Positions 38,818 through 55,429 are shown, numbered from the stretch's first letter. The stretch is DNA of 64,000 nt from Gammaproteobacteria bacterium (GCA_965222615.1 CBDCUI010000009.1:32001-96000); one strand, 5' to 3'. Numbers and translations: made by a program. Notes: generated by a model not told the origin, from the sequence alone.

Positions 38818-39372
38818 GTGACATATAATATTCCTAACATCCTGACCTTTATAAGGATATTGATCATTCCATTATTGGTGTTGGTATACTATTTTCCACC
38901 CAATCGTTATGGCATGCCGGCTGCAGCATTGCTTTTTGGCATAGCGGGATTTACCGATTGGCTAGATGGCTATCTAGCCCGCAAGTTGAATCAAACTTCA
39001 AAATTAGGCGCTTTTTTAGATCCGATCGCCGACAAACTTATCGTGGTTACCGTATTGATCATGATCGTCGATGAATACGGCAAGCTATCTATTTTAATTC
39101 CAGCACTCATTATAATAGGCAGAGAAATAGCGGTTTCAGGATTACGCGAATGGATGTCCGAGCTTGGCTATCGGGACTCAGTATCTGTTTCCATGCTAGG
39201 TAAGATAAAGACCACGGCCCAGATGATTGCACTATTTTTATTGCTGTATTACTACCCAATTTTTGGATTACCGACATTTCAAATAGGCGTATGGCTGCTA
39301 TATATCGCTGCGGCCCTTACACTTTGGTCGATGTTGGTCTATATAAATCGTGCCATTAAAGCCAATAGTTGA
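38818..39372 (+). CDS. pgsA: CDP-diacylglycerol--glycerol-3-phosphate 3-phosphatidyltransferase
   Basis: TDWLDGYLAR, GAFLDPIADK, GKIKT; follows uvrC. Confidence 0.96.
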   Translation: MTYNIPNILTFIRILIIPLLVLVYYFPPNRYGMPAAALLFGIAGFTDWLDGYLARKLNQTSKLGAFLDPIADKLIVVTVLIMIVDEYGKLSILIPALIIIGREIAVSGLREWMSELGYRDSVSVSMLGKIKTTAQMIALFLLLYYYPIFGLPTFQIGVWLLYIAAALTLWSMLVYINRAIKANS

Positions 39373-39393
39373 TGATATATATAAGAGTATTGA

Positions 39394-39421
39394 TTGACTC
39401 ATTACAGCCGATCAATAGAAT
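39394..39421 (+). promoter_or_regulatory. Sigma70 promoter of the original tRNA-Gly locus
   Basis: TTGACT-N16-TAGAAT, 10 nt upstream of the tRNA 5' half. Confidence 0.6.
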
Positions 39422-39431
39422 ATAAGTCTAT

Positions 39432-39469
39432 GCGGGAATAGCTCAGCTGGTAGAGCGCAACCTTGCCAA
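39432..39469 (+). repeat. Left att site: 5' half of tRNA-Gly (38 nt, ends in the anticodon loop)
   Basis: GCGGGAATAGCTCAGCTGGTAGAGCGCAACCTTGCCAA, 37/38 identical to 55068-55105. Confidence 0.95.
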
Positions 39470-39700
39470 TATTAAACTTCCTTTTTTAGCTCTAATATAA
39501 ACAAGAGCTTACATCACACAGTTACAGCCTTACCTTCAAAAATTGTGTATTAATCGACGCAAATAAACGGTAGTTTGGCACAAAATGTCACAGTTTTTGG
39601 AGCGCAACACTTTTTGTGTCGAGCGCTTTTGATGGCCAATATATGTGACAGTTTCAGACACTATTATCAATCATTACAGGTTTCTAACTTTAGTTGCATT

Positions 39701-39750
39701 TTATATCCGTATTTGTATAAAATATGATTTATATCAATACCGATATAAAT
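39701..39750. promoter_or_regulatory. Tandem operator-like inverted repeats overlapping a putative promoter
   Basis: TTATATC-N6-TGTATAA (39701-39720) and ATTTATATC-N6-GATATAAAT (39727-39750); TTGCAT at 39694 and TATAAA at 39716. Confidence 0.55.
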
Positions 39751-39782
39751 TAAACATTCCGCAATGAGTTAGCAATTCATAT

Positions 39783-42700
39783 ATGAGTGACAATTTAGAA
39801 GCTACCGAGTTATCAAACGACATTCGCGAAAGGGCAGAGCTTATTGTCACTTTGCAAGAATACCTGGTGGGACAGCCAGGAACGCAAGCTGATAAAGCCA
39901 AGCAACTTGGTATAACTCAACCGAGGCTAAATGCTTTACTTAAAAACAAAGTAGAAAAGTTTAGTTTGGATGCACTCGTAAATATCGCAGCGAAAGCTGG
40001 TGTTCGAGTAAATTTACAGTTGCAAAGGATTGCTAAACCACTTAAATCGCCACCTACAATTCTCAATACATTCCAAGTTGGCCCTTTCTTTTCTCCAATG
40101 CCCGATGAATTGGGTTATTTGGATTCGACTCAATCTTCTAAAGTATTTCTAAATCTTTTACGTTGCGATGTAACTAGTGCAGGTATTAGTCCGTCAAACA
40201 TCGTGTTTTCGCTTAACACTACTACAAAAGACGGAGGTATTGACGCAAAGGTAGAAGTTGAATGTGCATCAAGCTCATTTCTTGATAATGGTAATGTTCA
40301 TTTCCAAGTTAAAAGCGGATCAAGTTTCAAGCCGTGGTATGCAAGCTGTCTTAAAAGAGAATTGTTTGGAAAATCTAATGCTCGCCCATCAAAAAAAGCT
40401 TTAGGAGATGCGGTTAAACATTGCCTTGATAATGGACACACATATTGTTTGGTTACGTTTGGGCATGATTTGCTACCAAAGGAACATACTAAAACTATAA
40501 ATTACTTAATAGAATATTTTCAGGCATGCGGTTATCGAAATCCCAAAGTTAAAGTTCTTGGTCAAGGTCAACTTATAGGTGAGATAGAAAAATACCCATC
40601 ACTTTGTCTCGAATTAAAAGGTTTATCGGTTGATGGGGCGCAGCCAATAGAATACTGGAAAAACAATGCTCAAATGCAGCTCCCATTATTTAAGGGAGAG
40701 CCGCAAAATAAATTTATTGATGAGATTCAAGACTTGATACGTAGTAATTCTGTTCAGCATATCAGAGTTATAGGTGAGCCAGGGATTGGCAAAACACGAC
40801 TTATTCTTGAGTCCGTGTCGGATCAATTTATTGCACCCACAGTTGTTTACATTAGTTCCGGAGAAGAATTTCAAAAAAGTAAATTGTTTAAAGAAATACT
40901 TAGAGTAGATAGAAACTTCTCCGCTACGTTAGTAATAGATGATTGTGATTCTCGCGATAGGACATCTATTTGGTCAGCTCTAAAAGGTAATTCCCGAATT
41001 AAATTGATAACAATTGATCATGGTCCCGAAGACAGTGATGACAGCAGTATGAAAACGATTCATTGTCCGTTGCTACCAAATGAGCAAATTGAAGAAATAT
41101 TAGCTAGCTATTTAGACAAAAAATATGACTTGCGTAATTGGGCAGAAATGTGTGACGGATCTCCTAGAGTAGCTCATGCAGTAGGAGAAAATTTAGCTAA
41201 GAATTCAAGTGATGTTTTAAAAACACCAGCTGATGTTCCAATCTGGGAAAGATTTATCATTGGACACAAACCGATTAATAGCGTTGATGCAGAACAATAT
41301 CGCATAGTTTTGCGTCACCTAGCGTTGTTTCAAAAATTTGGATTTGAGAATCCAGTTGATGAAGAAGCGCGCCACATCTGTACTCTTGTCCAAAAAGTTG
41401 ATTCGTCTATTAGTTGGGGAAAGTTCCAGACTATTGTCTTGCACTATAAAAATAAACGAATACTTCAAGGAAATACTACGTTGTATTTTGTCCCAAAAGC
41501 ATTGCATATTCATCTCTGGGTCGATTATTGGGAACAACATGGAAGAGGTTTTAAATTTCAAGACATATATGAGGAATTGCCCAGCGGCTTAAGGAACTGG
41601 TTTTTGCAGTTATTTATTTATGCTCACGATGTTGAGCCCGCAAAAAAAGTTGTAAAGAATATTTTATCCGAAGATGGGCCATTTTCAGATGTTAGCTTCT
41701 TTAAATCTAAGACTGGGTTGAAATTTATAAGTGTGTTAGCAGAGGCTGATCCTGCTTCTACATTAAGATTGATAGAAAGAACACTAGAAGAGTGGAGTCA
41801 TGAGGACATATATAAGCTTAATGAGGGGCGCCAGTACCTTGTATGGGCTTTGGAAAAAATATCTGTATGGAAAAATTTATTTGCTCGTAGTGTAGATGTA
41901 TTAACAAGGTTAGCACTCGCAGAGAATTCAAATTACGGCAATAATTCAACAGGGATATTACTAAGTCTATTTCAAATTGGACGAGGTTGGGCGCCAACGC
42001 AAGCACCCCCTGAAATGAGATTTCCCATTTTGCAAGAGTTTGTGAGGAGTGAAGATTCAGCAAAAAGAGAGTTAGGATTCAAAATGTGTGAAACATGGCT
42101 GGACACACATGGGGGAATGAGAACTATAGGTTCTGAGTATCAAGGTATACGGCCAACAATTAAATTCTGGGCGCCGAAAGTATGGGGGGAAATATTTGAT
42201 TGTTGGCGAGACGTACTGAAATTTCTATTTGATGAGATGAAAGGATTTGATATTGAAAACAAAAACAAAGCTGCGAATGTTTTAGTGCATGCTGCATTTG
42301 ACTTAATTGACACCAATGCGGTTACTGATCAAATCCATGACATATTATTTGAACTTGCAAATGATGAAGATATAAGCAAAAAGGGACTCACTAATTTTGT
42401 AATTAGGATGCTTAATAGACGAGATAGAAAACTAGAGTCTAGCCTATTAGAAAAAATAAATGAGCTAGACAATATGCTAACTGGTACCTCATTGATAGAT
42501 AGAATTACAAGATTTGTATTAAATACAAATTGGGAAGAGCACTATGGGATAAATGATGGAGATAATAGTGAATCAGATAGGCGAGTAAATGAGTTAGCAA
42601 AAGAATACATGGCTGATACTGAGCATTTCGATAAATATGCATTAAGCCTATTAAAAGCATCTGGACTTAAATTGCCACAATTCGCATATGAATGTGGAAA

Positions 42701-43838
42701 GCAAGCTACTGAGAATTTATTAGATGAAAAATTATTAAATTTGATCAAGGATAATGTCGAATACATAAATAGTGAATATTTAGGAGGTTATCTTTCTGGT
42801 ATTCGAGAGCTTGATGAGGATAGATGGGAATCATTAATTGTGTTATTGCTTAGAGATGTAAATACAAGAGACTTGGCAATAAATTGTATAACGAGATCCG
42901 GACTAAACGATTCCCTTATACATCTAATGCTAAATATGTATAAGAAAGAGGAGATAAGCTCTAGCGCATTTTTTAATTTCTATTATAAGCGTGAGAATTC
43001 AGGTGTTTCATTTGATGCGGTTAGAGAAATTATACATACCTTACTCCAATATCCCGACGACACATCAGTTAGTGTTGCAATTGAAATTTTATACGTTAAA
43101 TACATAGAAGATGAAATTAATCCTTTACCAGAAGAATTGGTACTTAACGCTCTCATTGCGCCCCCGATTAAAATTTATACCCAAGAAGCAATGTATGACT
43201 ATCATTGGGAAAAAATTGCAAATGTTTATTTGAAAGAGTATCCACATAGAAGCATGGAATTGCTAGGTTCAATTTTCGATAAAATTCTTAGTGGCGCCCA
43301 ATATTATTCTTACTCATTTTTACGAAAAACAGCAGCTAAGATTATTAAAAGCGAACCTGATTTATCGTGGAAATTAGTATCAAGGATGCTTGAAGATAAC
43401 GACGCAGCTTCTTTTCATTTAATGTATTGGTTTGATAGTGACAACATTGAGGAAGGTGAAGAGAATAAAAGCTTAGCAAGTTATTTCCCTATAGATAAAG
43501 TTATGAAATGGGTTGGTGAAGACGAAAAAATTAGGAAGAATAAAATAATTGAAATATTGCCTAAAACTTTAGAATTACAGAATGGCGGTTATCTAACTCG
43601 TGAATTTATTGATAAATTTTGTAACGATAAAAAAACCACTGGAAGGCTCATAGTGCATTTTTGGGCCGGTTCATGGAGTGGAAATACTAGTGCATACTTA
43701 TCAGGCAAGAGAGATATAGCTAGAAAATGGTTCAGTGAAATTGAATCAGCTAGGATACAAAAATGGTTAAGCTATTACATGGACTGGTTAAGTGAACGAA
43801 TTGAGAGAGAGTTGATTGAAGAAGAAAGAGAATTTTGA
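39783..43838 (+). CDS. XRE-HTH + PD-(D/E)xK-like nuclease + STAND-type P-loop NTPase + helical repeat protein; putative anti-phage defence
   Basis: TQADKAKQLGITQPRLNALL...FSLDAL (HTH), DGGIDA...FQVKSG (nuclease), GEPGIGKT and LVIDD (Walker A/B), CDGSPRV, long helical C-terminus. Confidence 0.75.
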   Translation: MSDNLEATELSNDIRERAELIVTLQEYLVGQPGTQADKAKQLGITQPRLNALLKNKVEKFSLDALVNIAAKAGVRVNLQLQRIAKPLKSPPTILNTFQVGPFFSPMPDELGYLDSTQSSKVFLNLLRCDVTSAGISPSNIVFSLNTTTKDGGIDAKVEVECASSSFLDNGNVHFQVKSGSSFKPWYASCLKRELFGKSNARPSKKALGDAVKHCLDNGHTYCLVTFGHDLLPKEHTKTINYLIEYFQACGYRNPKVKVLGQGQLIGEIEKYPSLCLELKGLSVDGAQPIEYWKNNAQMQLPLFKGEPQNKFIDEIQDLIRSNSVQHIRVIGEPGIGKTRLILESVSDQFIAPTVVYISSGEEFQKSKLFKEILRVDRNFSATLVIDDCDSRDRTSIWSALKGNSRIKLITIDHGPEDSDDSSMKTIHCPLLPNEQIEEILASYLDKKYDLRNWAEMCDGSPRVAHAVGENLAKNSSDVLKTPADVPIWERFIIGHKPINSVDAEQYRIVLRHLALFQKFGFENPVDEEARHICTLVQKVDSSISWGKFQTIVLHYKNKRILQGNTTLYFVPKALHIHLWVDYWEQHGRGFKFQDIYEELPSGLRNWFLQLFIYAHDVEPAKKVVKNILSEDGPFSDVSFFKSKTGLKFISVLAEADPASTLRLIERTLEEWSHEDIYKLNEGRQYLVWALEKISVWKNLFARSVDVLTRLALAENSNYGNNSTGILLSLFQIGRGWAPTQAPPEMRFPILQEFVRSEDSAKRELGFKMCETWLDTHGGMRTIGSEYQGIRPTIKFWAPKVWGEIFDCWRDVLKFLFDEMKGFDIENKNKAANVLVHAAFDLIDTNAVTDQIHDILFELANDEDISKKGLTNFVIRMLNRRDRKLESSLLEKINELDNMLTGTSLIDRITRFVLNTNWEEHYGINDGDNSESDRRVNELAKEYMADTEHFDKYALSLLKASGLKLPQFAYECGKQATENLLDEKLLNLIKDNVEYINSEYLGGYLSGIRELDEDRWESLIVLLLRDVNTRDLAINCITRSGLNDSLIHLMLNMYKKEEISSSAFFNFYYKRENSGVSFDAVREIIHTLLQYPDDTSVSVAIEILYVKYIEDEINPLPEELVLNALIAPPIKIYTQEAMYDYHWEKIANVYLKEYPHRSMELLGSIFDKILSGAQYYSYSFLRKTAAKIIKSEPDLSWKLVSRMLEDNDAASFHLMYWFDSDNIEEGEENKSLASYFPIDKVMKWVGEDEKIRKNKIIEILPKTLELQNGGYLTREFIDKFCNDKKTTGRLIVHFWAGSWSGNTSAYLSGKRDIARKWFSEIESARIQKWLSYYMDWLSERIERELIEEEREF

Positions 43839-44359
43839 ATAAAATTAGTCTTTTTTTGTATTCAATATTTTATCGTGTCGATAGCCCACGTATAAAATCA
43901 CAAAGGTTGGCGAATATCTACCGTTCATTTTGTTAGTACGTATAGGCATTCACAGCTCCAATTGTTAGGGCGTTCATAAAAATATTACAAATTTATGAGT
44001 GGCCATGATCATTTAAATTGTAGCCGGATACCCCCCTATGGGGTCGGCAAACCACCATATAGGACCACCAAAACACCTGCCTACTTGGTTTAACACCAAG
44101 ACCTCAAGTCTTCTAGCCCGAAGGCCTAGCACCTGCAAAGTCAATGTTTATGCGGGCTTAGGTCATCCTTAGCATTGTCTAGGTGTGTCAATGTTGACTT
44201 GAACTGTGACATAGGGGTGACTTGGAGAGGTTGAGGAGCTGGCTTAGGTGGTCTCAGCGCGTCCATTTGAGTGCAGGGGAGCAGGCTTCAATACGCACAT
44301 CCTAATCACTAACAATCATTCCAGTTAAATACCAACAGTAAGGAGTAACCATTCACAGC

Positions 44360-44668
44360 ATGAAAGTAGAAGCATTTAGACAACCTGACCTAGGTCATTC
44401 AGTTGAGATGCTAGACATGATCAAGCAGATGTTTAGCGAAGGCATACCGCAATCTCGGATAGCAGAGCGTCTTAATAAGAAAGGCTATAGGGGCGCTCTT
44501 GGTGGTAAATGGAATTCCAGTAGTGTCGGTAGATTGCTTAGGCAGTTGAAGCTATTGCCTACACACAGTAGTTATCTTGAAGTGACCAAACAGAATGCTG
44601 AGCTGAAGGCGAGGGTTATAGAGTTAGAGGATACGTTAGAACATATAATGAAGGAGCATTACAGTTAA
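44360..44668 (+). CDS. Small DNA-binding protein (stand-alone recombinase-domain-like HTH + coiled coil)
   Basis: SRIAERLNKKGYRG..GGKWNSSSVGRLL resembles the large serine recombinase RD domain; AAGGAG RBS. Confidence 0.65.
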   Translation: MKVEAFRQPDLGHSVEMLDMIKQMFSEGIPQSRIAERLNKKGYRGALGGKWNSSSVGRLLRQLKLLPTHSSYLEVTKQNAELKARVIELEDTLEHIMKEHYS

Positions 44669-44766
44669 TTAATCTATTTTTTCAAGTAGTTACAAGTGAA
44701 ACATAAAGTAAAAATAATGGCTATATACTACGCTCAGTCATGAGGTTATATAACGCTGTTAAAGGG

Positions 44767-45285
44767 GACCCCTACTCTCAGAGAACTACAAACAAACTTT
44801 CGAGTTTAAGACCTCGACAAACAAAACTTTCCCCTATCCAATCGTCGTGTGAAACATGTTTCACGCTCTGACCTACGGGGTCGTGGGTTTTAGCCCGAGT
44901 GTTGTAACTCAACTGATAGATTCAATGTGACAGTTTTTACTGTTGTTAAAGGATTTAAGAATGGCTTAGGTAAGCGAGTGAAAATTGACTTAAGTCGGAA
45001 ACTTGAGTTTTAGGACCCTCACTTATAGACCTATGGAACCGTCGTAACCGTTCGTCAATGTTTAGAACGCCTATTCTAAGACAACTAGAACCACCACTTA
45101 TAGACTAAACAACCAAACAAACAAATCGAGTTTCTGATCTCTCAAAAAACTTTCACCTATCCAATCGAAATCAGTATATGGGGTTTTCAAAATACCTAAC
45201 ATTTTCAGTGAAGTAGTAAAAGACCCCTACTTACAGAGAAATTCATAGTTTTCTGAATCTAATATCAGTTACCTATCCAACCGTC
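44767..45285 (+). repeat. Non-coding cluster of interleaved direct repeats (putative origin, promoter or packaging region)
   Basis: 17-bp motif at 44767, 45014, 45089 and 45222; CCTATCCAAYCG near 44833, 45156 and 45272; palindrome GTGAAACATGTTTCAC at 44849-44864. Confidence 0.75.
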
Positions 45286-45367
45286 ATCACAGCTAAGGGT
45301 AGGGCTTAAAAATTTCCTCAATACTGGCTCGCAATGCCAGTTATTCATATCAACTTAAAGACATACC

Positions 45368-45625
45368 ATGAACAAACAACACCAAATCTACCGCATCAAT
45401 CTCGATGCCTTAAGCCGTGATCAACTTGAATATGCAAAGCAAAAAGTAAATGAAGTCACCGGAGCACGCTTCAGTTACTCCGAGCTTGTCCGCTGTGGTA
45501 TCGATCTAATGAGCCGTGAGCTGGAGCGTCAATTGAATAACTCAACAGGGTTAGCAAACAGATTAATAAATAGATTCGGTAAGTACCGATGGGCTAGGTC
45601 CGCTACTCAACGCAAAAGGAAGTAA
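45368..45625 (+). CDS. Small basic protein, possible ribbon-helix-helix regulator
   Basis: YRINLD...FSYSELVRCGID pattern. Confidence 0.55.
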   Translation: MNKQHQIYRINLDALSRDQLEYAKQKVNEVTGARFSYSELVRCGIDLMSRELERQLNNSTGLANRLINRFGKYRWARSATQRKRK

Positions 45626-45628
45626 CAA

Positions 45629-45964
45629 ATGGAAACAGATATAGATATTAAAGATGTAAGTCTAATGGACGTGTCTACATGGCATCACGATGTAGACGAT
45701 ACGGAAGCCCTTACACGGAAGCATATCCCAAACCTAGACATTGCAAAGTGGCTGTTACAGATCAGGGCCGATGCTCCGAATAAAGCTCCAGTAGTAATTA
45801 AAGGCGAAGAACAAGAGCCCACACCACATATTGATGTTACTCGAAGTAATCAACTGCTGAAGATAATTGCTTGCAACTTATTACAACGATTCTGTGTGCT
45901 TACATTTAATTCAAACATCGAGAAGGTCATAGATGAATATGAACGTCGTACCGTTATCTACTGA
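45629..45964 (+). CDS. Hypothetical protein
   Basis: 111-aa ORF closely coupled to its neighbours. Confidence 0.6.
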   Translation: METDIDIKDVSLMDVSTWHHDVDDTEALTRKHIPNLDIAKWLLQIRADAPNKAPVVIKGEEQEPTPHIDVTRSNQLLKIIACNLLQRFCVLTFNSNIEKVIDEYERRTVIY

Positions 45965-46220
45965 TCTTACATTACCAAGTGGTCCCGCAAGTTATGAAGA
46001 TGTATGCACAATACATCGGCAAGTTACCTCTATTCTGTCTGATGACTTAAACAAGATAGAAGAGGGCACTTATGATGGTGATGAGAAAGCGAAAGCAGAG
46101 ATCATCAAGGTTGCTATTAAGTTCTTAAAGGACAATAAGATCTTAGTTGATGAGGATAGCTCACCGAGAAAGTATGCAACTCAACTAGAAAGTTTAGAGT
46201 TGCCGACGTTTAGAGACTAG
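45933..46220 (+). CDS. Putative terminase small subunit (T7-like gp18/DNA maturase A type)
   Basis: About 95 aa; IH...L...IEEG...VAIKFLKDNKI...SP...LPTF pattern recalled from Autographiviridae TerS; not verified by search. Confidence 0.55.
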   Translation: MNMNVVPLSTDLTLPSGPASYEDVCTIHRQVTSILSDDLNKIEEGTYDGDEKAKAEIIKVAIKFLKDNKILVDEDSSPRKYATQLESLELPTFRD

Positions 46221-46256
46221 ATAAAAGCTTAAGGAAATAAATTAAAGGGATACAAA

Positions 46257-48176
46257 ATGGAACAATTAATCACAATCGACTCGAATGAGTTTGTCGAAAG
46301 GATGCAAGAACATTGGGAGACTACATTAGGCAATGTAAGCAGTGATGCATTACGCCTTGTATGGAAGCAACTATCTTCAACATTCAATGGTTATATTGGT
46401 GGACATGCAGATAAAGAATGGTATGTATTGCAACCCCCCACTGGATCAGGCAAAACTCAAGGCACTATTGTTTATGCATCGATGCTGTCTGAACTGGAAA
46501 TGACAGATCACCCTGGAATGTTAATTGTTACACGTCGGATATTCGATGCAGATTTAATAGCAGATCAGATAAATGAACTTTCAGGTCGAGAGGTAGCCGT
46601 TAGCTTTCATAGTGATAAGCATAAAGAGCTATCAATTCACGAGCTGTCCAAATGGCCTGTATTAGTCATTACCCATAGAGCCTATGAATTAGCACTGGAT
46701 CAAATCTATAAAGATCAAAGCAATAAAGATACATGGGATTACTTCAATGAGTGGATACCTAAGTTTGATTCAAATGGCAGAAAGTTAATTGTTATTGATG
46801 AGTCACTAGACATTGTTGAGCATAATCAAGTCACAGCTTCAGAGCTTAACCACACCATAGGTTGTCTTGACACAAAGCTATTAATTAAATATCCAAGTGA
46901 AATCGAAGCAATTAAGGTTGCAAGAGACCATCTCCTTAAAATAGAAGCAATGAACTTTGCAAGCACTACGACCACCATTGTCAAAAGCGTGCTCGATGAT
47001 ATTACTAAGGCACCTAATTTCTCAGAACTAATAAAAGACCTCAAGCAAGTGCGCTTCGATTTTCAAGTTCATAAGAATGACACCAATGAGAATAACAAAA
47101 TGAGGTCATTACATGAGAAGAGATTGAATGCACTGCAACGTATCTATAACTCATGGATGTACTATGCGAGGCTAGAGAATAAAGAAACATTAAACACAGC
47201 AAGATTGCTTGTACCAAGTAATGTTAGAGGCGCGGTTGTATTAGATGCAACAGCGAAGTCTAACTTGATCTATACAGTATTCGATAAAGCAAAGGTACTC
47301 ACACCACCGGAAGGTTCACGAAACTATCAGAATGTGAATGCACATTTCTTAAAGGGCTTCAACGGTGGCAAGGTATCGATGCAAAAGAATGCTAAGAAGC
47401 TTGCTAAGCAATTAATGGCGGACTTAAACACACGACTAGCGGGTCGTAATGTTCTTATCATTACTCATAAAAGTGTTAGACCAAGCCTTGAGCTATATGA
47501 AGGTAACACTAGTTTCAAAATGAACATTGCTCATTGGTTTAACGCCGCGGGTAGTAATGAATGGAAAGACTGTGATGCTGTAGTGTTATGGGGATTACCA
47601 TTTCTACCTGATTATGTGGCGACTAATACGTTCATGGCATGTCAAGGTGTACAAGAAGATGAGTGGCTGACAGATGTAACTAAGAGAGAGTTCAAAGGAA
47701 TAAAAGACATCAAGCAAGCACTTAAGGTTGGAGCTAGCGTAGTAGAGATCGTCCAAGGTCTGAATAGGATCGCCTCACGCAAAGTTATAGACACTGAAGG
47801 TAACTGTCCTGAAGTCGATTTCTATATTCCATTACCCAATAACACAATTGGAGAAGCAATCTATAAGGGGATTGTTGAGGAGATGCCTAGGATGACCTTA
47901 GGTGAACCTTGGAAACTAGACACCGATGCTAAGCCAGTTAAGAAAGGTAACGGTGAAATAGCTCTAGTGTCTTATCTCACTAATATGATGAGAGGGAAGG
48001 TTAGTGCTAGTCAGGTTAAGAGCGAGATAGGAATATCTCCCGCAACATTTAAAAGACTAGTAGCTAAGTTAAAAGATACAACTAGTTCCTTATATCAATC
48101 ACTAATAGATATAGGAGTTAAGTATCAAGTTAGTGGTAAGGGACAAAGACAAGTCGCTCATTTTGTTAAGTCTTAA
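46257..48176 (+). CDS. Superfamily 2 helicase-like replication protein with C-terminal HTH
   Basis: PPTGSGKT (I), IVIDES (II), LDATA (III), QGLNRIASR (VI); C-terminal SASQVKSEIGISPATFKR. Confidence 0.8.
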   Translation: MEQLITIDSNEFVERMQEHWETTLGNVSSDALRLVWKQLSSTFNGYIGGHADKEWYVLQPPTGSGKTQGTIVYASMLSELEMTDHPGMLIVTRRIFDADLIADQINELSGREVAVSFHSDKHKELSIHELSKWPVLVITHRAYELALDQIYKDQSNKDTWDYFNEWIPKFDSNGRKLIVIDESLDIVEHNQVTASELNHTIGCLDTKLLIKYPSEIEAIKVARDHLLKIEAMNFASTTTTIVKSVLDDITKAPNFSELIKDLKQVRFDFQVHKNDTNENNKMRSLHEKRLNALQRIYNSWMYYARLENKETLNTARLLVPSNVRGAVVLDATAKSNLIYTVFDKAKVLTPPEGSRNYQNVNAHFLKGFNGGKVSMQKNAKKLAKQLMADLNTRLAGRNVLIITHKSVRPSLELYEGNTSFKMNIAHWFNAAGSNEWKDCDAVVLWGLPFLPDYVATNTFMACQGVQEDEWLTDVTKREFKGIKDIKQALKVGASVVEIVQGLNRIASRKVIDTEGNCPEVDFYIPLPNNTIGEAIYKGIVEEMPRMTLGEPWKLDTDAKPVKKGNGEIALVSYLTNMMRGKVSASQVKSEIGISPATFKRLVAKLKDTTSSLYQSLIDIGVKYQVSGKGQRQVAHFVKS

Positions 48177-48822
48177 AGTTATGAGGCTCACTTCCCTTTA
48201 ATAAACCTATAGGGATTCGATCCTCATAAATATGAACGGTCAGTTATTAAAACTATCTGATACTTCGTAACCAACCGATCATAGACATCACTAGGTTTTA
48301 GGGGTCGTTATCATCCCCGTTATTTCCTCCCTGGTGGTGTCTATCCACCTAGGTCCAGCTAAGGTCATCCTTAGGTCTCTCCATACATCTTCCATACCCT
48401 ATGGATGGATCTTATTGGTCCTATAACTATCTAGCTTGCCTTATGGGCTAGAGAATGGAATAGCCGGTATAGGTCTAAACTTCGCCTATGCTGGCTAGTT
48501 CCTAGCTTATAATGACCGCTAACGACCCAAAGCGGACATTCAAATCATGACAAACTAGATAGGCTGGATCTTATTCCGCTTGAACTGCCGATTTCTCACA
48601 TTTAAACATCGCTATCTATCTAATCCTGCTGTATGGTGAATCTAAGATTAGATATTCCTATCCCGATTTTCTTCCAGAGTTTCATTTCTTTGCCAGTTGT
48701 CGGCAATCATCTCTAATTACTGATTCCTTTGACACAGTGTCATTGGAGCACTAACACATGTGCAAATAGATTGAATGGGTATGCGCACAACAAGGCTCGA
48801 TCATCGAGCAAGGATATAAACA

Positions 48823-49089
48823 ATGAAACTATATGTAGGTAATTTACCTTGGAGCGTAACTGATGTGGATTTAAAAGAACTTTTTAGTGAGGTTGGCGAA
48901 GTAACAAGCGCCACCATTATCACTGATAGAGATTCTGGTCGATCCCGTGGATTCGGTTTCGTAGAAATGGCGAAAGAGGCTGGCCAACAAGCGATTAAGA
49001 AATTCAGCGAGCACGTAATTGATAACAGAACGCTGCGTGTCAATGAAGCAAATGAAAAACAACCCCGTCAAGCTGGCGGCCATTCTTAA
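48823..49089 (+). CDS. RRM (RNP-1) RNA-binding protein
   Basis: KLYVGNL (RNP2), RGFGFVEM (RNP1), LRVNEA. Confidence 0.95.
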   Translation: MKLYVGNLPWSVTDVDLKELFSEVGEVTSATIITDRDSGRSRGFGFVEMAKEAGQQAIKKFSEHVIDNRTLRVNEANEKQPRQAGGHS

Positions 49090-49169
49090 AAGGTAGTTGG
49101 GCTAATGATCTTCGGGCGACATAACAATGCCGCTCGAGATCCTTTGACTACACAAAAGGAGCTACTTCT

Positions 49170-49313
49170 ATGATCGAAGAAGAAGAAAAGAAGTTGATGG
49201 ATCAATACGGGGTCATTTCTCAGCAAAAAACGGTGTATCACTATAATGGGTACAACTATGACAATCTTGAAGATGCGATTCGGTATGCCAAGATTGACAC
49301 TCAGCGAAAGTGA
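49170..49313 (+). CDS. Small protein (47 aa), not in the ORF track
   Basis: AAGGAG RBS; MIEEEEKKLMDQYGVISQQKTVYHYNGYNYDNLEDAIRYAKIDTQRK. Confidence 0.7.
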   Translation: MIEEEEKKLMDQYGVISQQKTVYHYNGYNYDNLEDAIRYAKIDTQRK

Positions 49314-49352
49314 ATTTGGCCCGTTCCCACAAAATTCTATGAGGAAGCCAAC

Positions 49353-49745
49353 GTGAATACTATTAAAGATATCAAGATAAAAGGCTTAGACCCGAATCGA
49401 AGGCCCAGTCTAAAGAATAAAAACTACGTTGATATAATTTTCGAGCTGACTCAAAAAGCACCCAAAGACTGGTGCGCTGACTTCAATTTATTATTTTCAA
49501 AAGATAAGCACAACGCAAAGATAAATCCTGATGAGGGACGATATGTTGAGACATGGGTGAGAAATATTAACGACATTCCAAAAGAACTTGAGCTGATTAA
49601 ACAACTCATCGTAATCTGTAATAACAACTATATTGAACAAAAGCATCAAGAAGAACTAGCTTGGCAAAAATCTGAAAACAGCAAATCCAATAGCCGCAGC
49701 GATGAATTAGAAGGTATCCTGGCAAGCCTAAATTTCAATTCATAG
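49353..49745 (+). CDS. Hypothetical protein
   Basis: 130 aa, GAGG RBS, GTG start. Confidence 0.7.
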   Translation: MNTIKDIKIKGLDPNRRPSLKNKNYVDIIFELTQKAPKDWCADFNLLFSKDKHNAKINPDEGRYVETWVRNINDIPKELELIKQLIVICNNNYIEQKHQEELAWQKSENSKSNSRSDELEGILASLNFNS

Positions 49746-49776
49746 CTCTTGTCTGAAATTGGCCGAAAGGAATCAT

Positions 49777-50076
49777 ATGAATAAGGACTGCAAAGTCGTA
49801 CTTATTTCGAATTCTGGGTATAAAAAAGAACACAACGATCTATTGCAAGAGCTAATAGAAAATGAAATTGAACTTTTCTGTGCCGTGGGTATTGAGTGCC
49901 AGGAGTGGGAAGAAGCAATGGACTTGTTGTGTGCTGAGTTAGATGCAAATGACATTAAACCAAACGCTTTTTGCAACACGACATCTCATCCTAATGAAAG
50001 TGTTGAGGATGTGATTAAATTTGCCGAAAGTTGGAGCCAGAAAGGGGCAACAGAAGTAAAAATAATCGAGATTTAA
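49777..50076 (+). CDS. Hypothetical protein (cassette-like)
   Basis: ATG at 49777 after AAGGA, directly abutting the degenerate 30-bp site. Confidence 0.7.
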   Translation: MNKDCKVVLISNSGYKKEHNDLLQELIENEIELFCAVGIECQEWEEAMDLLCAELDANDIKPNAFCNTTSHPNESVEDVIKFAESWSQKGATEVKIIEI

Positions 50077-50219
50077 CTAATGTAGTAGATGACCGCTATT
50101 GGCCGAAAGCGGACATAAACTAAGCCAGTAAGGCAGAAATTAGGTTGGATTCCATAAATAACATGTTCAAAATGACTGCTAACGACCCAAAGCGGACATA
50201 GGAAATAATAATATTTGAT

Positions 50220-50654
50220 ATGAAAAAGATACCAACTTTAAAAGCCGCGATGACTCCTTTCCCATATTCTGTACAGCTTGAAACGACGCTTACTGCTGTA
50301 AGGAATTTGATGCAAACGCACAATATTCATCATATTCCAGTTATGAATAGTGGGAAAATTGTAGGTGTAGTAACCGCAAGAGATGTTGAGGCAAGGCAAA
50401 AGATGATGGATAGCGATGATAATGAACCATCACTTGAGGTATTGCATGTTCCTATGTCTAAGGCTTATATCGTCGATATCAATGAACCGCTTGAAAATAT
50501 ATTGTTAACAATGGCTAGTAAACGAATTGGGGCTACTGTCGTAACTAAACATGGAAAATTAGTAGGAGTCTTTACATATATTGATGCTTGTCGTTATTTT
50601 AGTGAATACATAAAAGCAAAGTTTCCTAAAAATAATGATAATGATGCGGCATAA
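50220..50654 (+). CDS. CBS domain protein (cassette-like)
   Basis: AMTPFP, IHHIPV, IVGVVTARD, LVGVFTYID. Confidence 0.9.
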   Translation: MKKIPTLKAAMTPFPYSVQLETTLTAVRNLMQTHNIHHIPVMNSGKIVGVVTARDVEARQKMMDSDDNEPSLEVLHVPMSKAYIVDINEPLENILLTMASKRIGATVVTKHGKLVGVFTYIDACRYFSEYIKAKFPKNNDNDAA

Positions 50655-50742
50655 GCATCAACTTTTGAATGACTGCTTTTGGCCGAAAGCGGACATAAAG
50701 AGCTAAGCCACATTAAAGCAACCTAGCTCTATCCCTGTAGCA

Positions 50743-51012
50743 CTAATAATTAAAAGACTCTGCTGTTAGTGTAACCTTTGTACCTTCTAACGCTTTCTTA
50801 AACGGTCCAAACTCTGGAGTGTCCCCAAAGATCGGAAAGCTACCGTCGCATCCAGTTAAGTAAATAAGTTGTTTGTCGTCTATGTCTCGGCCTTCACCCA
50901 CTATCAGTAATGCGCCGTCCTTGTCTGTATACATAGTACCTTCAACAAGATCTGCAAAACTTAATTCTTCTTCGCGATGTTCAGGTGTTTCCACTTCTAT
51001 ATCTACAATCAT
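50743..51012 (-). CDS. Hypothetical acidic protein
   Basis: 89 aa, GGAG RBS. Confidence 0.6.
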   Translation of the reverse strand: MIVDIEVETPEHREEELSFADLVEGTMYTDKDGALLIVGEGRDIDDKQLIYLTGCDGSFPIFGDTPEFGPFKKALEGTKVTLTAESFNY

Positions 51013-51266
51013 TATGTAGTTACTCCATGTAAATTAAATAAGTAACTACTTTAGTTACAAAGACACACCTAATCCAATCAATTCTCTTTCTAACTTGACT
51101 ACTCTAAACAGTTGAGAGTCGTCAACTACGGCGAGTAACTTACTGCTACAAATAACTAAAGCAGTGTTCGCTGCGTTTACAACATTCAATGACACTCAAC
51201 GATTGAGTACTGTCAAAAAATTCTACTTATAACCCACCCACTAACTCTGCAAAGGAGTACATAACT

Positions 51267-51506
51267 ATGAAATGGACAAAAGTAAATAAAGATACAGCAC
51301 ACAGATACGTAGTAGATGGAGGACTTCTTTCAGAAGGGGTTTCCACTCTCAGATCATTTAAGGATAAACTTCGCGCGACTAAGTTTGCAAAGGCTCTATC
51401 CAGAGCTATCGGTGCATGTAATTTATTAGATAAAGAGAAACTAGTTCTACAACGATTCGTTAAAGGTGACTCAAAAGCGACCTTTTCCGTAATTTACGCC
51501 TCTTAA
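51267..51506 (+). CDS. Hypothetical protein
   Basis: 79 aa, AAGGAG RBS. Confidence 0.65.
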   Translation: MKWTKVNKDTAHRYVVDGGLLSEGVSTLRSFKDKLRATKFAKALSRAIGACNLLDKEKLVLQRFVKGDSKATFSVIYAS

Positions 51507-51629
51507 TCCACTGATTTTGCTAAGGGTCAAATGTCTTATTTGAGCTATTTAAAACACCCCTAGCTCTACTATTAATTATTTAAACAAACGATCTGAGAGG
51601 CTCTCACGATCTATACCCATTCAATAATC

Positions 51630-51797
51630 ATGAATAACGAACCAATAACTACTCAAGACCCCGACATCAGGGTACTGCTAGAAAACATTCAAAGGCTGAG
51701 GTCATATGTCCCAGCCAAGGATAGTCTGTGGCAACGACTTAAAACTGCCAAGAAGAAAACTAGAAACAACAAACCTATAGGAAAACAAAACCAATGA
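51630..51797 (+). CDS. Small basic hypothetical protein (55 aa), not in the ORF track
   Basis: Open frame MNNEPITTQDPDIRVLLENIQRLR...; its TGA overlaps the next ATG (ATGA). Confidence 0.4.
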   Translation: MNNEPITTQDPDIRVLLENIQRLRSYVPAKDSLWQRLKTAKKKTRNNKPIGKQNQ

Positions 51798-52003
51798 AAT
51801 TAAATGTAGAAAAAGTTACTAACTACGTAAATGAAACCTACAAGTCACATGCTAATCAATCTGAACCCGTCATTTCAGATGTTGATCAAGAAGGTAACTA
51901 CACGGTTACTGTTGATCTACTGAAAGATGGTGAAGTAGTTAACACGACAGTTAGTAAGCACTCAGTGTCACCCGCTGAAGCAAGAGCGCACAACCTCTTT
52001 TAA
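51794..52003 (+). CDS. Hypothetical protein
   Basis: 69 aa, AGGA RBS. Confidence 0.6.
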   Translation: MKLNVEKVTNYVNETYKSHANQSEPVISDVDQEGNYTVTVDLLKDGEVVNTTVSKHSVSPAEARAHNLF

Positions 52004-52094
52004 TTGAGCATCAGCCACGCCCGTCGGAGCTAGTCGATTTTCGTTAAGTGGTTACGACGAATCCGACACCTAATTCAACCAACTAAATAAACAT

Positions 52095-52796
52095 ATGACA
52101 TCAAAACATATCCCTGCCGAAGCGGCAGTAAAGATCAATGAATGCAGACCATGCGCAGTAGATTGGTGCAGCGAGTACAGAGCAAATCTATATAAGTACT
52201 GTAAAAGACATGCTTACAGAGACGCTAGATACGGCGACACTAAGTTTACACCACCTGATAAAGCACAACTGTCTCAATATCGTGAATGGTCTTCTAAAGT
52301 ACTACAGGCAAATGCAAATGTACCTCATGTAATCGGTGCGCAACAAATGCTAAGGAAGATTGTTCAACATTGTTTAACTAATAAGAATGAACATGTTAGA
52401 GCGCATGCGAATCGCCTGAACAATTCATTCGATGCATTCAAGGCTTTGCATGATGTTTTTACTATTTGGCTGTGGAGTAATGATTGTTTACACCAAGCTA
52501 TCCAATTTCAAGCTAATGAAATTAAAGTACGCGACCGATTAATAGGAAGAAAATTCCTATCGGTGACACCCCTAAATAGTGAGCTGCATAAATGCAGTAA
52601 TCCAAGTGGGCGAGTCTGCCAAATCTACGGCGAATTAATAACACAAAACTTGCTAAGGATTTTTTTAGCCCTCACTCAAATCGTTGATGAGTCAAAAAAG
52701 ATGGAGCAAGAAGCCAAAGAAGAAAGTATCGAATTGAACTATCCGCAAGAGACCTTAGAACTTGCAAACAAAATGTTAAACCAACTAAGCAACTAA
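52095..52796 (+). CDS. Hypothetical protein with N-terminal Cys/His Zn-finger-like motif
   Basis: CAVDWC...YCKRH..R..RYG. Confidence 0.65.
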   Translation: MTSKHIPAEAAVKINECRPCAVDWCSEYRANLYKYCKRHAYRDARYGDTKFTPPDKAQLSQYREWSSKVLQANANVPHVIGAQQMLRKIVQHCLTNKNEHVRAHANRLNNSFDAFKALHDVFTIWLWSNDCLHQAIQFQANEIKVRDRLIGRKFLSVTPLNSELHKCSNPSGRVCQIYGELITQNLLRIFLALTQIVDESKKMEQEAKEESIELNYPQETLELANKMLNQLSN

Positions 52797-52813
52797 CCAA
52801 AAAGGAAGTAAAA

Positions 52814-53683
52814 ATGAATGAAGAAAATAAAAGTGTAACTATTCAACACACAGATAATACTAGTAGAGGGTCAATATCCACTGAAGAAGTAACGCATGAT
52901 CAGTTACCGATGGGCAGATATCCACGACATCGCGTGTCTACTGAAGACTTCAAGCCTTATGAGGACAACCGATACGATGGCGGTCCGATAGTTAACGATT
53001 ACAGTAAATACAATACGAACCCTGCAAGTAAGACGATTCGCACCAATGAATCTGAAGTATACGGTGGTGAGGGCGAATTAAGCTTTCAAGCTATTACGGG
53101 CATGACTCGTAACTTTAGAAATGCTGAGCCGCATGACCTAGTTACCTTACCTGGTGGAATGGAACTAAAAGTTGAGCAAGCACTTGCACACGGAATGATT
53201 GTTAAGACAGATGAGGGCTATTCTTTACCTGGACAACCAGCACAACAACAACCTCAACCAGCTCAAAAGGTGAATGAGCAACAGTTTATTGAATTGAGTC
53301 CTGACGAAGATCACTCGCTTGCAAATGAGACCATGCAAGAACAAACCGAAGCTATGAGAGAGCATCTCGGTGATGATAAATATGAGCGTTATGCTGAACT
53401 AGTTGCTACTCACGATAATCTCGATGATGTAATTGACGCGCTCGGTGATGAGCTTCAGGGCAATTACGATTACGCAGAGACCGTTACAAATGCGCTAATT
53501 AAGAATGTGGTCAATGAAGGACTTACTTATGCTCAGGCAAGGGGAGCCGACCGAGAAGGCTTCAAGGCATATCTATTCAACCATCCGAACCAAGTTGCAG
53601 TTAAGAAAGCAATTACTAAGCTATTCAAAAGTCACAATCCTGCGCACTTGAACGAGTTCATTAATAGCTACGTAGCTAAGTAA
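52814..53683 (+). CDS. Acidic hypothetical protein (possible scaffolding-like)
   Basis: 289 aa, AAGGA RBS, Q/P linker, acidic helical C-terminus. Confidence 0.6.
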   Translation: MNEENKSVTIQHTDNTSRGSISTEEVTHDQLPMGRYPRHRVSTEDFKPYEDNRYDGGPIVNDYSKYNTNPASKTIRTNESEVYGGEGELSFQAITGMTRNFRNAEPHDLVTLPGGMELKVEQALAHGMIVKTDEGYSLPGQPAQQQPQPAQKVNEQQFIELSPDEDHSLANETMQEQTEAMREHLGDDKYERYAELVATHDNLDDVIDALGDELQGNYDYAETVTNALIKNVVNEGLTYAQARGADREGFKAYLFNHPNQVAVKKAITKLFKSHNPAHLNEFINSYVAK

Positions 53684-53756
53684 AGATCCATCAGTTTGCC
53701 GGAGCTGTAAATCCGGCATTTCTTTACATTCATTTCATTAACTAAAGGAGTAAACA

Positions 53757-54086
53757 ATTAGTGATGAAACTTTATCCCTTAGCGAAGCTGCACATCTATT
53801 AAAGATGTCACCTGAAGCGTTACGGCGCAAAGCTAAGGCCTGTGATATTCCTGGCGCAAAACCTGCCAAGGAATGGGTATTTATTAAGGAAGATTTACTC
53901 GCTTACATCCGCTCATGTTATGCTAAACCTGTAACTGTGTGGAGTGAGCGATCAACTGAAAAGGAGATCAATCAATGCCATACAAACGAAAAGACAATGG
54001 AGTCTATTACTCCAATTTTGAATCCAGAAGTGGAGAGCGGGTACGAAAGAGCCTTAGGACGCGTGATAGAAATGAGGCCATCATAA
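53757..54086 (+). CDS. Excisionase-like HTH protein (HTH_17), apparent ATT start
   Basis: ETLSLSEAAHLLKMSPEALRRKAKACDIPGAKPAKEWVF; AAGGAG 6 nt before ATT; in-frame TAA at 53751. Confidence 0.8.
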   Translation: MSDETLSLSEAAHLLKMSPEALRRKAKACDIPGAKPAKEWVFIKEDLLAYIRSCYAKPVTVWSERSTEKEINQCHTNEKTMESITPILNPEVESGYERALGRVIEMRPS

Positions 54087-55036
54087 AAGAGGCTGAATTG
54101 ATTGCGGCAGATAAGGGTGAAGTCGTACAGATTAACAATAACCGGAAAACTTGGCGTGATGCTGTTTACCGATACTGGAATGAAGTGGAAGGTAAAGCTA
54201 GCGCTGATTGTATTCAAATACATTTAAGGTTCTTGGATACATTCTTAGGAGATAAGTATCTCGATGAGATCAATGATGAACTTATCGAAGATATTATTGC
54301 TGCTAAAAGTAGTGAGAAAAACCGTAAAGGTGAGAAGCTATCCGGTGCTACAGTTAATCGATTAACGGCGACGTTAAAGTCGGTGTTCAATAGTGCAAAG
54401 AAATACAGATGGATCGACAACGTTCCGTATGTAAGAAAGTTAGAAGAGTCAGAGGGTAGGAGTAGGTATCTCACACCATCTGAATCTAAACGATTACTTG
54501 ATCATTGTGCTGAACACTTAAAACCGATAGTGACATTTGCTTTGCATACAGGCTTGAGAAAGCAGAATGTATTAAGGCTTAGATGGGAGAATGTAGACCT
54601 CGATCAAGGTAAGTGCTGGGTGCTTAGCTCAGAGCATAAAAACCGAAAGGCGAGGGGTGTTACTCTCAATAGTGTTGCTTTAGGGGTGCTACGAGAATTA
54701 GCTATATATAAGGTGTCGCCCTATGTATTTAACTATAGGGGGCGGCCTATTGGAGATGTGAAGACGGGACTTAAGCGAGCCTGTGAACGGGCTGGCTTAA
54801 AGGACATATCCTTCCACACATTTCGACATACTTATGCTTCTTTACTAGCACAGCAAAACGTTTCGACCCTAGTTTTAAAGGAGCTAGGTGGATGGAAGTC
54901 AATGCAAATGGCTCAAAGATACGCTCATCTTAATGATGACGGACTGCGAGAATACCAAGAATTGCTTGTAGGTTTGTCACAGTACTGTGACAAAAATCCA
55001 CCGCCCAAGTTAAGGCTAGTAAGTGGAAAATCGTAA
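53975..55036 (+). CDS. Tyrosine recombinase/integrase
   Basis: HTGLRKQN, FHTFRHTYAS, LGGWKSMQMAQRYAH; adjacent to the att site. Confidence 0.95.
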   Translation: MPYKRKDNGVYYSNFESRSGERVRKSLRTRDRNEAIIKEAELIAADKGEVVQINNNRKTWRDAVYRYWNEVEGKASADCIQIHLRFLDTFLGDKYLDEINDELIEDIIAAKSSEKNRKGEKLSGATVNRLTATLKSVFNSAKKYRWIDNVPYVRKLEESEGRSRYLTPSESKRLLDHCAEHLKPIVTFALHTGLRKQNVLRLRWENVDLDQGKCWVLSSEHKNRKARGVTLNSVALGVLRELAIYKVSPYVFNYRGRPIGDVKTGLKRACERAGLKDISFHTFRHTYASLLAQQNVSTLVLKELGGWKSMQMAQRYAHLNDDGLREYQELLVGLSQYCDKNPPPKLRLVSGKS

Positions 55037-55067
55037 GTGATTGAGTTAAATTAGGAAATTCGGTTAT

Positions 55068-55143
55068 GCGGGAATAGCTCAGTTGGTAGAGCGCAACCTT
55101 GCCAAGGTTGAGGTCGCGAGTTCGAACCTCGTTTCCCGCTCCA
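55068..55143 (+). tRNA. tRNA-Gly(GCC), reconstituted at the right att site
   Basis: 76 nt, GCGGGAA/TTCCCGC acceptor stem, anticodon loop TTGCCAA, GTTCGAAC, CCA. Confidence 0.97.
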
Positions 55144-55429
55144 TAACTATTATCTAAGTTTGGTGGTCTACAACTACTTTCTAAAGTTACCCCTTAATCA
55201 CTCAGCAAGCTTCCTATTTCAAGACTAAAAAGAAAAATTCTCTAAGGGGGAGGGCATAAATGAGCTGCCCACACACACAAAAGAGCAAAGTACTATTAGA
55301 TAAAATACTTAATAAATCAGCTGAAGTATGAATCTAGAGTTTAAAGTAGTAAAATACATAGTTGTGTACCGTATTTAATTGCTTTGCTTTATATATGGTT
55401 TGTTTTTATTATTTATTATATGTGTAAAT

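Follow-up and report, generated by a model that had tools for sequence, protein, structure and literature searches.

The question raised by this locus is what kind of element has been inserted into a glycine tRNA gene of a Gammaproteobacteria bacterium (GCA_965222615.1, CBDCUI010000009.1:32001-96000), and by what means it may travel. The window, by which we mean the whole 64,000-nucleotide stretch of DNA that was analysed, contains at 39470-55067 an island that had been described from its sequence alone as a candidate satellite of T7-like (Autographiviridae) phages; we refer to that description as the sequence-only reading. We conclude that the island is probably a phage parasite that is carried in the particles of T7-like phages. 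We incline, if not strongly, to the opinion that it belongs to a new satellite family, in which a small terminase subunit (TerS) of the gp18 type redirects the terminase of an Autographiviridae-like helper. The fuller proposal is more tentative: this could be the first family of satellites in nature to exploit T7-like (Autographiviridae) phages, its own gp18-type TerS and a set of oriented repeat boxes capturing the helper terminase, with a possible dependence on the polymerase and replisome of the helper, and with an integrase that replaces the 5' half of a tRNA at the anticodon loop so that the native tRNA promoter drives the defence cargo. These proposals rest on the anatomy of the island, from which we infer both the satellite life style and the identity of the helper.

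The gene that carries the argument is the open reading frame (ORF) at 45933-46220, which the sequence-only reading had singled out as a T7-like small terminase because of its size and a KFLKDN...LP(T)F pattern. Its product matches the Pfam family PF11123 (DNA_Packaging_2) with 33.1 bits (E 5.8e-8), above the curated cut-off of 27.5 bits, and the PHROGs family phrog_891, 'terminase small subunit', at 1.2e-8. The PF11123 match recurs in all five TerS proteins of the island family (best 1.1e-9) and in none of 14 control genomes, and the annotated small terminase of phage T3, a member of the Autographiviridae, matches the same profile at 2.2e-16 (60.1 bits). A scan of IMG/VR returned four viral contigs with TerS relatives (34-38% identity in the scan, 33-41% in the alignment described below), and in every one of them the TerS gene lies immediately upstream of an ORF of 575-584 aa for the large terminase subunit (TerL; phrog_38, 1e-101 to 1e-120). 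Two of these records, both near-complete (41.5 and 51 kb), encode in addition T7-type RNA polymerase (6e-98 and 1e-115) and the T7 scaffold family. An eight-sequence TerS alignment (A7) runs from end to end, with a common AIKFLKDN helix and an LPTF-acidic tail, so that the pattern noticed at first is real and is common to the phage proteins. The phage TerS of one locus (L005) matches 120 of 50,697 phage records; the 25 that were listed are genomes of 37-47 kb, and the listed matches include Roseobacter phage CRP-118, Synechococcus T7-like phage S-TIP37 and Pseudomonas phage LUZ100. One TerS of the island family, P0003, directly matches genes named 'DNA maturase A' in 10 phage records of 39-45 kb, among them that of Roseobacter phage CRP-114 (Autographiviridae), where DNA maturase B adjoins maturase A.

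The protein of the island thus resembles T7/T3 gp18 (DNA maturase A) in its Pfam family, its length of about 90 aa, its central FLK-DN helix and its acidic C-terminal tail, and differs from it in its distance from the nearest phage proteins and in its genetic surroundings. Whereas a TerL gene follows in all four viral contigs and in CRP-114, none lies beside the TerS gene of the element or elsewhere in it, and a lone TerS without TerL is what is expected of a satellite.

The remaining gene content points in the same direction. The 18 ORFs of the element were scanned against Pfam, PHROGs, PADLOC and NCBIfam, and the description given in the sequence-only reading held well: an integrase, a helicase and defence cargo are present, as is an excisionase-like protein with weak matches, and 17 of the ORFs are on the plus strand, co-oriented toward the tyrosine integrase, with one on the minus strand. 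Pfam, PHROGs and NCBIfam gave no match to a capsid, portal, protease, TerL, tail, lysis or relaxase family in any of the 18 ORFs, and besides TerS there was no match to a T7-like phage gene. Nine of the ORFs have no Pfam match, and the only ones long enough for a T7-type portal or terminase are those of the helicase and the defence gene. The whole genome lacks any match to PF00940 and PF05396, the single-subunit RNA polymerase and scaffold families, by which an Autographiviridae prophage would be recognised alongside a T7-type DNA polymerase, portal, capsid and TerL.

The boundaries of the element are sharp. A repeat search of the window found a direct repeat at 39416-39469 and 55052-55105 (spacing 15,636 bp), the core of which (38 nt at 39432-39469 and 55068-55105, which differ at one position) corresponds to the 5' half of tRNA-Gly(GCC), identity ceasing at the 3' edge of the anticodon loop. 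The DNA between the cores measures 15,598 bp and corresponds exactly to the bounds previously drawn; its GC content is 0.387, compared with 0.392 genome-wide. By names read from the translations, the left flank carries uvrC and pgsA, and the right flank carries urease accessory genes and ureC on the opposite strand. In all four related genomes examined (G001, G002, G006 and G007) a whole tRNA-Gly gene directly follows pgsA, and therefore the 15.6 kb are an insertion. The TAGAAT box upstream of tRNA-Gly is kept in these relatives, and their upstream box GATCAATAGAAT is present at the left tRNA copy and absent at the rebuilt gene, from which it follows that the element substituted the 5' half of the tRNA and supplied a leader of its own. 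The native promoter, now split from the body of the tRNA, is directed into the element. Within 39300-55300, with shuffled sequences as the sole baseline, sigma-70-like matches are fewer (20 versus 46.0 +/- 7.0) and terminator-like sites more numerous (20 versus 10.8 +/- 3.0).

The element has a relative in a metagenome-assembled genome of the same order and another genus (G022, Gammaproteobacteria), where 16,299 bp occupy the 5' half of tRNA-Arg(TCG) between repeats of the same kind that also end at the anticodon loop. The two elements have 13 proteins in common, in the same order and at 39-82% identity by BLASTP. The sequence-only reading had suggested finding elements that share integrase, helicase and TerS; the G022 element shares the integrase, the TerS and the gene order, but the helicases of the two elements give no BLASTP match, although both lie at the same position and both have weak ResIII/DEAD matches. 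A 9.7-kb contig from ENA carries TerS (75%) together with the 289-aa core protein (70%), and a 3.2-kb contig carries another TerS (52%), which brings the known instances of the family to about four. The 289-aa protein is 50-70% identical in two relatives.

Several details of insertion are common to the window and G022 elements. In both it is the 5' half of a tRNA that is exchanged, where the 3' part would be usual, and the crossover falls where the anticodon loop ends on its 3' side (39394-39469 and 55037-55143 in the window; 1856-1933 and 18190-18232 in the G022 locus, L004). The element-borne leader of the rebuilt tRNA is alike in both (AATTAGG..GGTTAT; 55037-55143 in the window), and in both the native tRNA promoter, left at attL, is directed at the defence cargo.

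Upstream of the TerS operon lies a region that may contain the cis-acting signals of the element. A box of about 19 nt occurs in four copies within 44669-45367 (at 44767, 45011, 45086 and 45222), with downstream boxes CTATCCAAYCG at about 44834, 45157 and 45273. A 16-bp palindrome, GTGAAACATGTTTCAC, was found at 44849 by reading and regular expression, and GCTTAGGTAAGC is at 44964; an inverted-repeat tool returned nothing for 43839-45367, and the same interval gave no blastn match to phages. G022 has the same architecture in the same place, with TTGTAGAC for TTATAGAC and with CTACAAAACCGTC, and in both elements all copies of the box are oriented with the TerS operon. We propose that the boxes could be binding sites for TerS or for the 85-aa protein, acting as a packaging (pac) site, and/or an origin of replication.

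We prefer this proposal to the idea that the boxes at 44767-45240 are promoters for a single-subunit RNA polymerase of the helper, through which the TerS operon would be expressed, and replication perhaps primed, after host shut-off. That idea accounts for the fact that every box points to the TerS operon, and for the scarcity of sigma-70-like sites in the element (20, where shuffled sequences have 46 +/- 7); the box at 45011 has the 9-mer ACCCTCACT in common with 13 of the 14 annotated T3 promoters, and in the T3 annotation one phage promoter stands immediately before the primary origin and further ones lie on either side of the terminal repeats, so that promoters, origin and ends are closely tied in this phage group. 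However, when the window was scored with a matrix derived from the 14 T3 promoters, the boxes had negative scores and came no higher than 51st to 1298th among 127,956 positions, so that T3-type promoters are ruled out. The copies also vary at positions invariant among T3 promoters, and each is paired with a second conserved box, more in the manner of protein-binding iterons. In IMG/VR ACCNNCACTTATAGAC matched at least 120 stretches; the 80 listed had one match each, so that no contig with several copies was among them, a result at the uninformative level of chance. The T7-like provirus G063 has no repeated 12-mer promoter. We therefore consider it unlikely that the boxes are promoters of this kind.

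For a satellite of this kind a life cycle can be proposed. Infection by an exogenous T7-like (Autographiviridae-type) phage would cause the element to excise and to replicate by means of its helicase, perhaps together with the replisome of the helper. TerS would bind the repeat boxes at 44.7-45.3 kb as pac and recruit a gp19-type TerL from the helper, and the satellite DNA would enter helper capsids either as a concatemer of about three units (3 x 15.6 = 46.9 kb) or as a single unit in a smaller shell. The defence cargo would repay the host for carriage. Neither the genome of the window nor G022 encodes a T7-type RNA polymerase, and therefore any helper must come from outside. The sizes of the two elements, 15.6 and 16.3 kb, are about one third of those of the 37-47-kb phages that have this TerS family. 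That T7 can handle foreign DNA in this way is known from plasmids with a T7 origin, pac site and terminal repeat, which, according to the available part of PMC13236587, T7 replicates, packages and transduces. Such engineered phagemids (Chung & Hinkle 1990, cited in PMC13236587) resemble the proposed satellite in being small circular DNA that a T7-type phage replicates, packages and transduces when given its cis signals; as described there, they use the phage TerS and copied T7 sequences, whereas the element has its own divergent TerS and its own boxes.

A number of results weigh against this explanation. At an E-value of 0.01 a tblastn search with the TerS of the element found no match in the 50,697 phage records, its PF11123 match covers profile positions 4-46 of 79, which is the first half only, and a comparison of the island-family TerS profile with T3 gp18 by hhalign was not significant (probability 0.2), so that the connection with T7-like phages is made by way of Pfam and of phage sequences that lie in between. 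The satellite family proposed in the sequence-only reading is accordingly upheld as regards the TerS family, the missing structural genes and the conservation of the family, and is not upheld by the direct profile comparison with T3. The searches turned up no helper phage, and the contigs of four sequencing runs contained neither an excised circle nor an empty-site joint (attP, attB), although contigs can demonstrate presence only. Searches by sequence and by fold suggested no capsid-size or other helper-directed function for the 233-aa and 289-aa proteins. The family is also rare. Of 56 genomes of the order, two have TerS and two have the 289-aa protein; of 401 genomes sampled from the class, only that of the window itself has TerS, and a scan of species genomes for TerS returned G022 only. 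Viromes, in which the sequence-only reading had suggested a search for 15.6-kb units or multimers, show no sign of the element: scans of IMG/VR and the JGI metagenomes returned nothing related to the 289-aa protein, and the JGI scan no satellite-type TerS.

A single joint spanning the element turned up, in the run X3, and it belongs to another glycine tRNA.

Some of these negative results would suit an element that is never packaged at all. The island could be a defence island or integrative element whose gp18-like protein is a decoy, titrating or misdirecting the terminase of T7-like phages and so causing interference without transfer. Such a role would fit the failure to detect a packaged form in the IMG/VR and JGI scans or in the contigs of the four runs, the retention by TerS of the conserved C-terminal LPxF tail, which is the inferred contact with TerL, and the presence in both elements of recognised or candidate defence genes (PD-Lambda-4_A in one; PDC-M50 and PDC-S45 in the other). 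It leaves unexplained why the element retains a full set for excision and replication in its integrase, Xis-like protein and helicase, and why both elements conserve an oriented array of cis boxes beside the TerS operon for which a pure decoy would have no use; moreover, interference and transfer are coupled in the known satellites, as far as the available part of PMC10085698 describes (phage-inducible chromosomal islands, PICI). We find the decoy doubtful. Still less credit is due to a generic tRNA-inserted island or mobilisable element in which the PF11123 match is marginal and the small helical protein has no packaging role. The TerS protein is indeed short and helical, its PF11123 score is just 5.6 bits above the cut-off, and a profile search of the PDB with it returned only designed helical repeat proteins. 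Nevertheless, the consistency of the PF11123 match across all five members set against its absence from the control genomes, the end-to-end alignment with genuine phage TerS proteins that have the AIKFLKDN and LPTF motifs in common, and the direct match of P0003 to phage 'DNA maturase A' make that explanation very unlikely.

The records G062 and G063 (behind L007 and L008) from IMG/VR are T7-like, with RNA polymerase, scaffold, TerS and TerL, and are classed as proviruses; they may be temperate relatives of the kind of phage presumed to be the helper, and the integrase of G063 is 30% identical to that of the element. That such provirus-classed records carry this TerS family and, in one case, a related integrase is what might recommend the view that the island is a decayed temperate T7-like prophage, in which only TerS and the integrase are left of the virion and replication genes. 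Yet none of the 18 ORFs other than TerS matches a T7-like phage gene, and the helicase is not of the T7 gp4 type but comes from a mobile-element family in which fusions to Prim-Pol occur. The same reduced set is found intact, in order and at 39-82% identity in a second genus at another tRNA, and the family occurs on two further contigs, a recurrence that independent decay would not reproduce. We regard a decayed prophage as extremely unlikely. The sequence-only reading had named a lack of terminase similarity, or a match to a decayed prophage or to a known satellite class, as findings that would count against it; the similarity is present, and the element corresponds to neither.

Compared with known systems, a satellite of T7-like phages would stand closest to PICI, which share with it an integrase, a TerS of their own, a size of about 15 kb, accessory or defence genes and, by weaker matches on the side of the element, an AlpA/Xis-type regulator and a replication module (the available part of PMC10085698), as well as the lack of tail and lysis genes. 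Four of the five PICI components that this source sets out in the part available have a functional counterpart in the element (the integrase, a regulator with weak support, a replication module that is of a different type, and TerS), and none of the forbidden ones (tail, holin, or the portal/connector of cfPICI) was found in it with Pfam or PHROGs. It differs in its replication protein, an SF2 helicase without a recognisable primase, in that no capsid-morphogenesis homologue was found in it with Pfam or PHROGs, in core genes co-oriented toward an integrase at the far end, in the replacement of the 5' half of a tRNA, and in its presumed helper, a T7-like podovirus. Its TerS is of the T7 gp18 family (PF11123), whereas the TerS of PICI is of a different family. 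The markers of P4-like satellites, PLE and cfPICI (psu/delta/sid/alpha; PLE core; capsid, protease, portal and TerL) are absent from the Pfam, PHROGs and NCBIfam matches of the 18 ORFs, and the expectation that no standard satellite class would fit is borne out, as judged from family matches and class descriptions. Among satellites of marine phages, some of the small VEIMEs have TerS homologues that are closest to those of co-occurring phages (PMC9618062), and PICMI are satellites of virulent marine phages without capsid-remodelling genes (PMC10803314), each as given in the available part of the source. No link between a satellite TerS and T7-like phages appears in the available parts of the literature examined, including PMC10803314 and PMC9618062, whose supplements may hold cases. 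The element is like PICMI and VEIMEs, as far as those partial sources describe them, in being, if the proposal is right, a small satellite of environmental bacteria, and unlike them in that its 289-aa protein has no relative in IMG/VR or JGI and that JGI yielded no satellite-type TerS.

In the literature examined, characterised satellites parasitise temperate siphoviruses, P2-like or ICP1-like myoviruses, or, in the case of PICMI, N4-like phages. Few virulent phages are more common, whether in the sea or in phage therapy, than those of the T7-like kind. They seem an unlikely vehicle for a satellite, since they kill their host quickly, degrade its chromosome, silence its transcription and rely on an RNA polymerase of their own. 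Because of this host shut-off and DNA degradation the element may need the polymerase and replisome of the helper for its expression and copying. If the proposal is true, it becomes testable how an island escapes T7-type host shut-off, how a gp18-type TerS chooses its DNA, which to our knowledge is poorly understood even for T7, and whether such islands move defence genes among free-living bacteria. A family of about four known instances would also explain why standard satellite finders miss the element.

Table 1. Features of the 39470-55067 island and its junctions, with identity to the corresponding proteins of the G022 element (aa, amino acids; HTH, helix-turn-helix)
Feature	Position	Strand	Match or remark	Identity in G022
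Native tRNA-Gly promoter, TTGACT-16-TAGAAT	39394..39421	+	best sigma-70-like site of the region, 10/12	
attL	39432..39469	+	displaced native 5' half of tRNA-Gly(GCC); stops at 3' edge of anticodon loop	
PD-Lambda-4_A-like candidate defence protein, 1351 aa	39783..43838	+	PADLOC 8.6e-40; N-terminal HTH_37 7.3e-13	
Non-coding stretch, GC 0.43	43839..44359	.	blocks nearly identical in G022 element, e.g. AAGTCAATGTTTATGCGGGCT	
102-aa 'Recombinase' DNA-binding domain protein	44360..44668	+	PF07508 2e-6; domain alone	48%
Cis region upstream of TerS operon	44669..45367	+	repeat boxes and palindrome	
85-aa core protein	45368..45625	+	first gene of TerS operon	57%
111-aa core protein	45629..45964	+		53%
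TerS, 95 aa	45933..46220	+	T7/T3 gp18 family; PF11123, phrog_891	39%
SF2 helicase, 639 aa	46257..48176	+	ResIII 0.0058	
Variable region 2	48493..50697	+	bounded by four 28-nt hairpin repeats	
RRM protein	48823..49089	+	1.2e-19	82%
47-aa protein				61%
130-aa protein	49353..49745	+		82%
DUF7684	49759..50076	+	Pfam	
CBS pair	50220..50654	+	Pfam	
89-aa ORF	50743..51012	-	sole minus-strand ORF; not in G022 element	
Small ORFs of 79, 55 and 69 aa	51267..52003	+		55-aa: weak match only; 69-aa: 75%
233-aa core protein	52095..52796	+	invariant C-x4-C-x10-C-x2-H motif near N-terminus	50%
289-aa acidic core protein	52814..53683	+	disordered N-terminus, small beta domain, helical C-terminal domain	50%
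Excisionase/AlpA-like HTH protein	53805..54086	+	weak: HTH_17 0.0025 (below cut-off 27), phrog_1840 excisionase 0.0042; overlaps integrase start	68%
Tyrosine integrase	53975..55036	+	PF00589 1.2e-30; phrog_1 1.8e-65	64%
Rebuilt tRNA-Gly(GCC)	55068..55143	+	intact gene; attR 55068-55105, upstream leader from element	

Among the other genes of the element (Table 1), the helicase is the one with the widest distribution. It has at least 229 homologues at 38-46% identity, many with a precomputed PF00270 (DEAD) assignment, and in 4 of the 120 homologues listed (923-1011 aa) it is fused to a Prim-Pol domain (PF09250), which identifies the family as a replication protein of mobile elements. The gene at 46257-48176 is thus a probable replication helicase of the element, of a family that is not specific to this group of islands. 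A profile search of the PDB with the helicase gave nothing, no primase domain was found in the element with Pfam, and in IMG/VR the helicase matched one 6.5-kb contig of unrelated make-up. Many members of the family, to which P0052, P0083, P0086 and P0126 belong, are on contigs of 7-16 kb, and this helicase may prove a marker for a far broader class of small mobile elements.

The remaining core proteins are harder to place. The 102-aa protein is probably a regulator or a DNA-binding factor, and the 85-aa protein has, to the eye, the look of a ribbon-helix-helix protein; neither it nor the 111-aa protein has a match in Pfam, PHROGs or the PDB. The 233-aa protein has no PDB or phage match, and its protein-atlas matches are unnamed clusters only. 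The AF2 models of the 233-aa and 289-aa proteins are poor (pLDDT 48.8 and 53). For the 289-aa protein a protein atlas had offered the T7 scaffold at rank 6 (score 0.85), a candidate that was ruled out for want of support: hhalign against the T7 scaffold gave a probability of 0.1, PF05396 had no match in the genome even at E 10, and the model had no match in BFVD at E 0.001 or better. Searched by tblastn against the 50,697 phage records, the 289-aa protein, the 233-aa protein and the helicase gave no match.

The non-coding stretch at 43839-44359 (about 520 bp) corresponds to 13647-14331 of the G022 locus, with blocks that are almost identical; it matches no Rfam family, and may act as a promoter/operator region, encode an RNA or serve as an origin.

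The slot beside attL holds different defence genes in the two elements. In the window it is occupied by PD-Lambda-4_A (PDLC03991, 8.6e-40, residues 108-1349, nearly the full profile), and in G022 by PDC-M50 A and B (8.9e-51 and 2.3e-63, the latter also matching ThsB at 6.3e-66). The PD-Lambda-4 system has a B component; no B-type match was found with PADLOC among the other 17 ORFs. A second variable stretch contains the DUF7684 and CBS genes here and a PDC-S45-like peptidase in G022.

Hairpin repeats of 28 nt (ATGACYGCT-loop-AGCGGACAT) border the small accessory genes in a cassette-like manner, at 48493-48540, 50070-50117, 50153-50200 and 50650-50697 in the window and at 5513, 6495, 7273, 7346, 9040 and 17957 in the G022 locus. 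Four of the five strict copies in the 3.1-Mb genome are within the element, looser copies are clustered at C7:818.9-822.5 kb and C9:833-834 kb, and in a soil-metagenome run the repeats are joined to many other contexts. By reading, they do not appear to be integron attC sites. The RRM, 47-aa and 130-aa proteins encoded at 48823-49745 have chromosomal paralogues at C9:959618-960534 (85%, 61% and 77%, respectively), which, together with the 82% identity to G022, suggests that this module is host-like, slowly evolving and retained by the element family.

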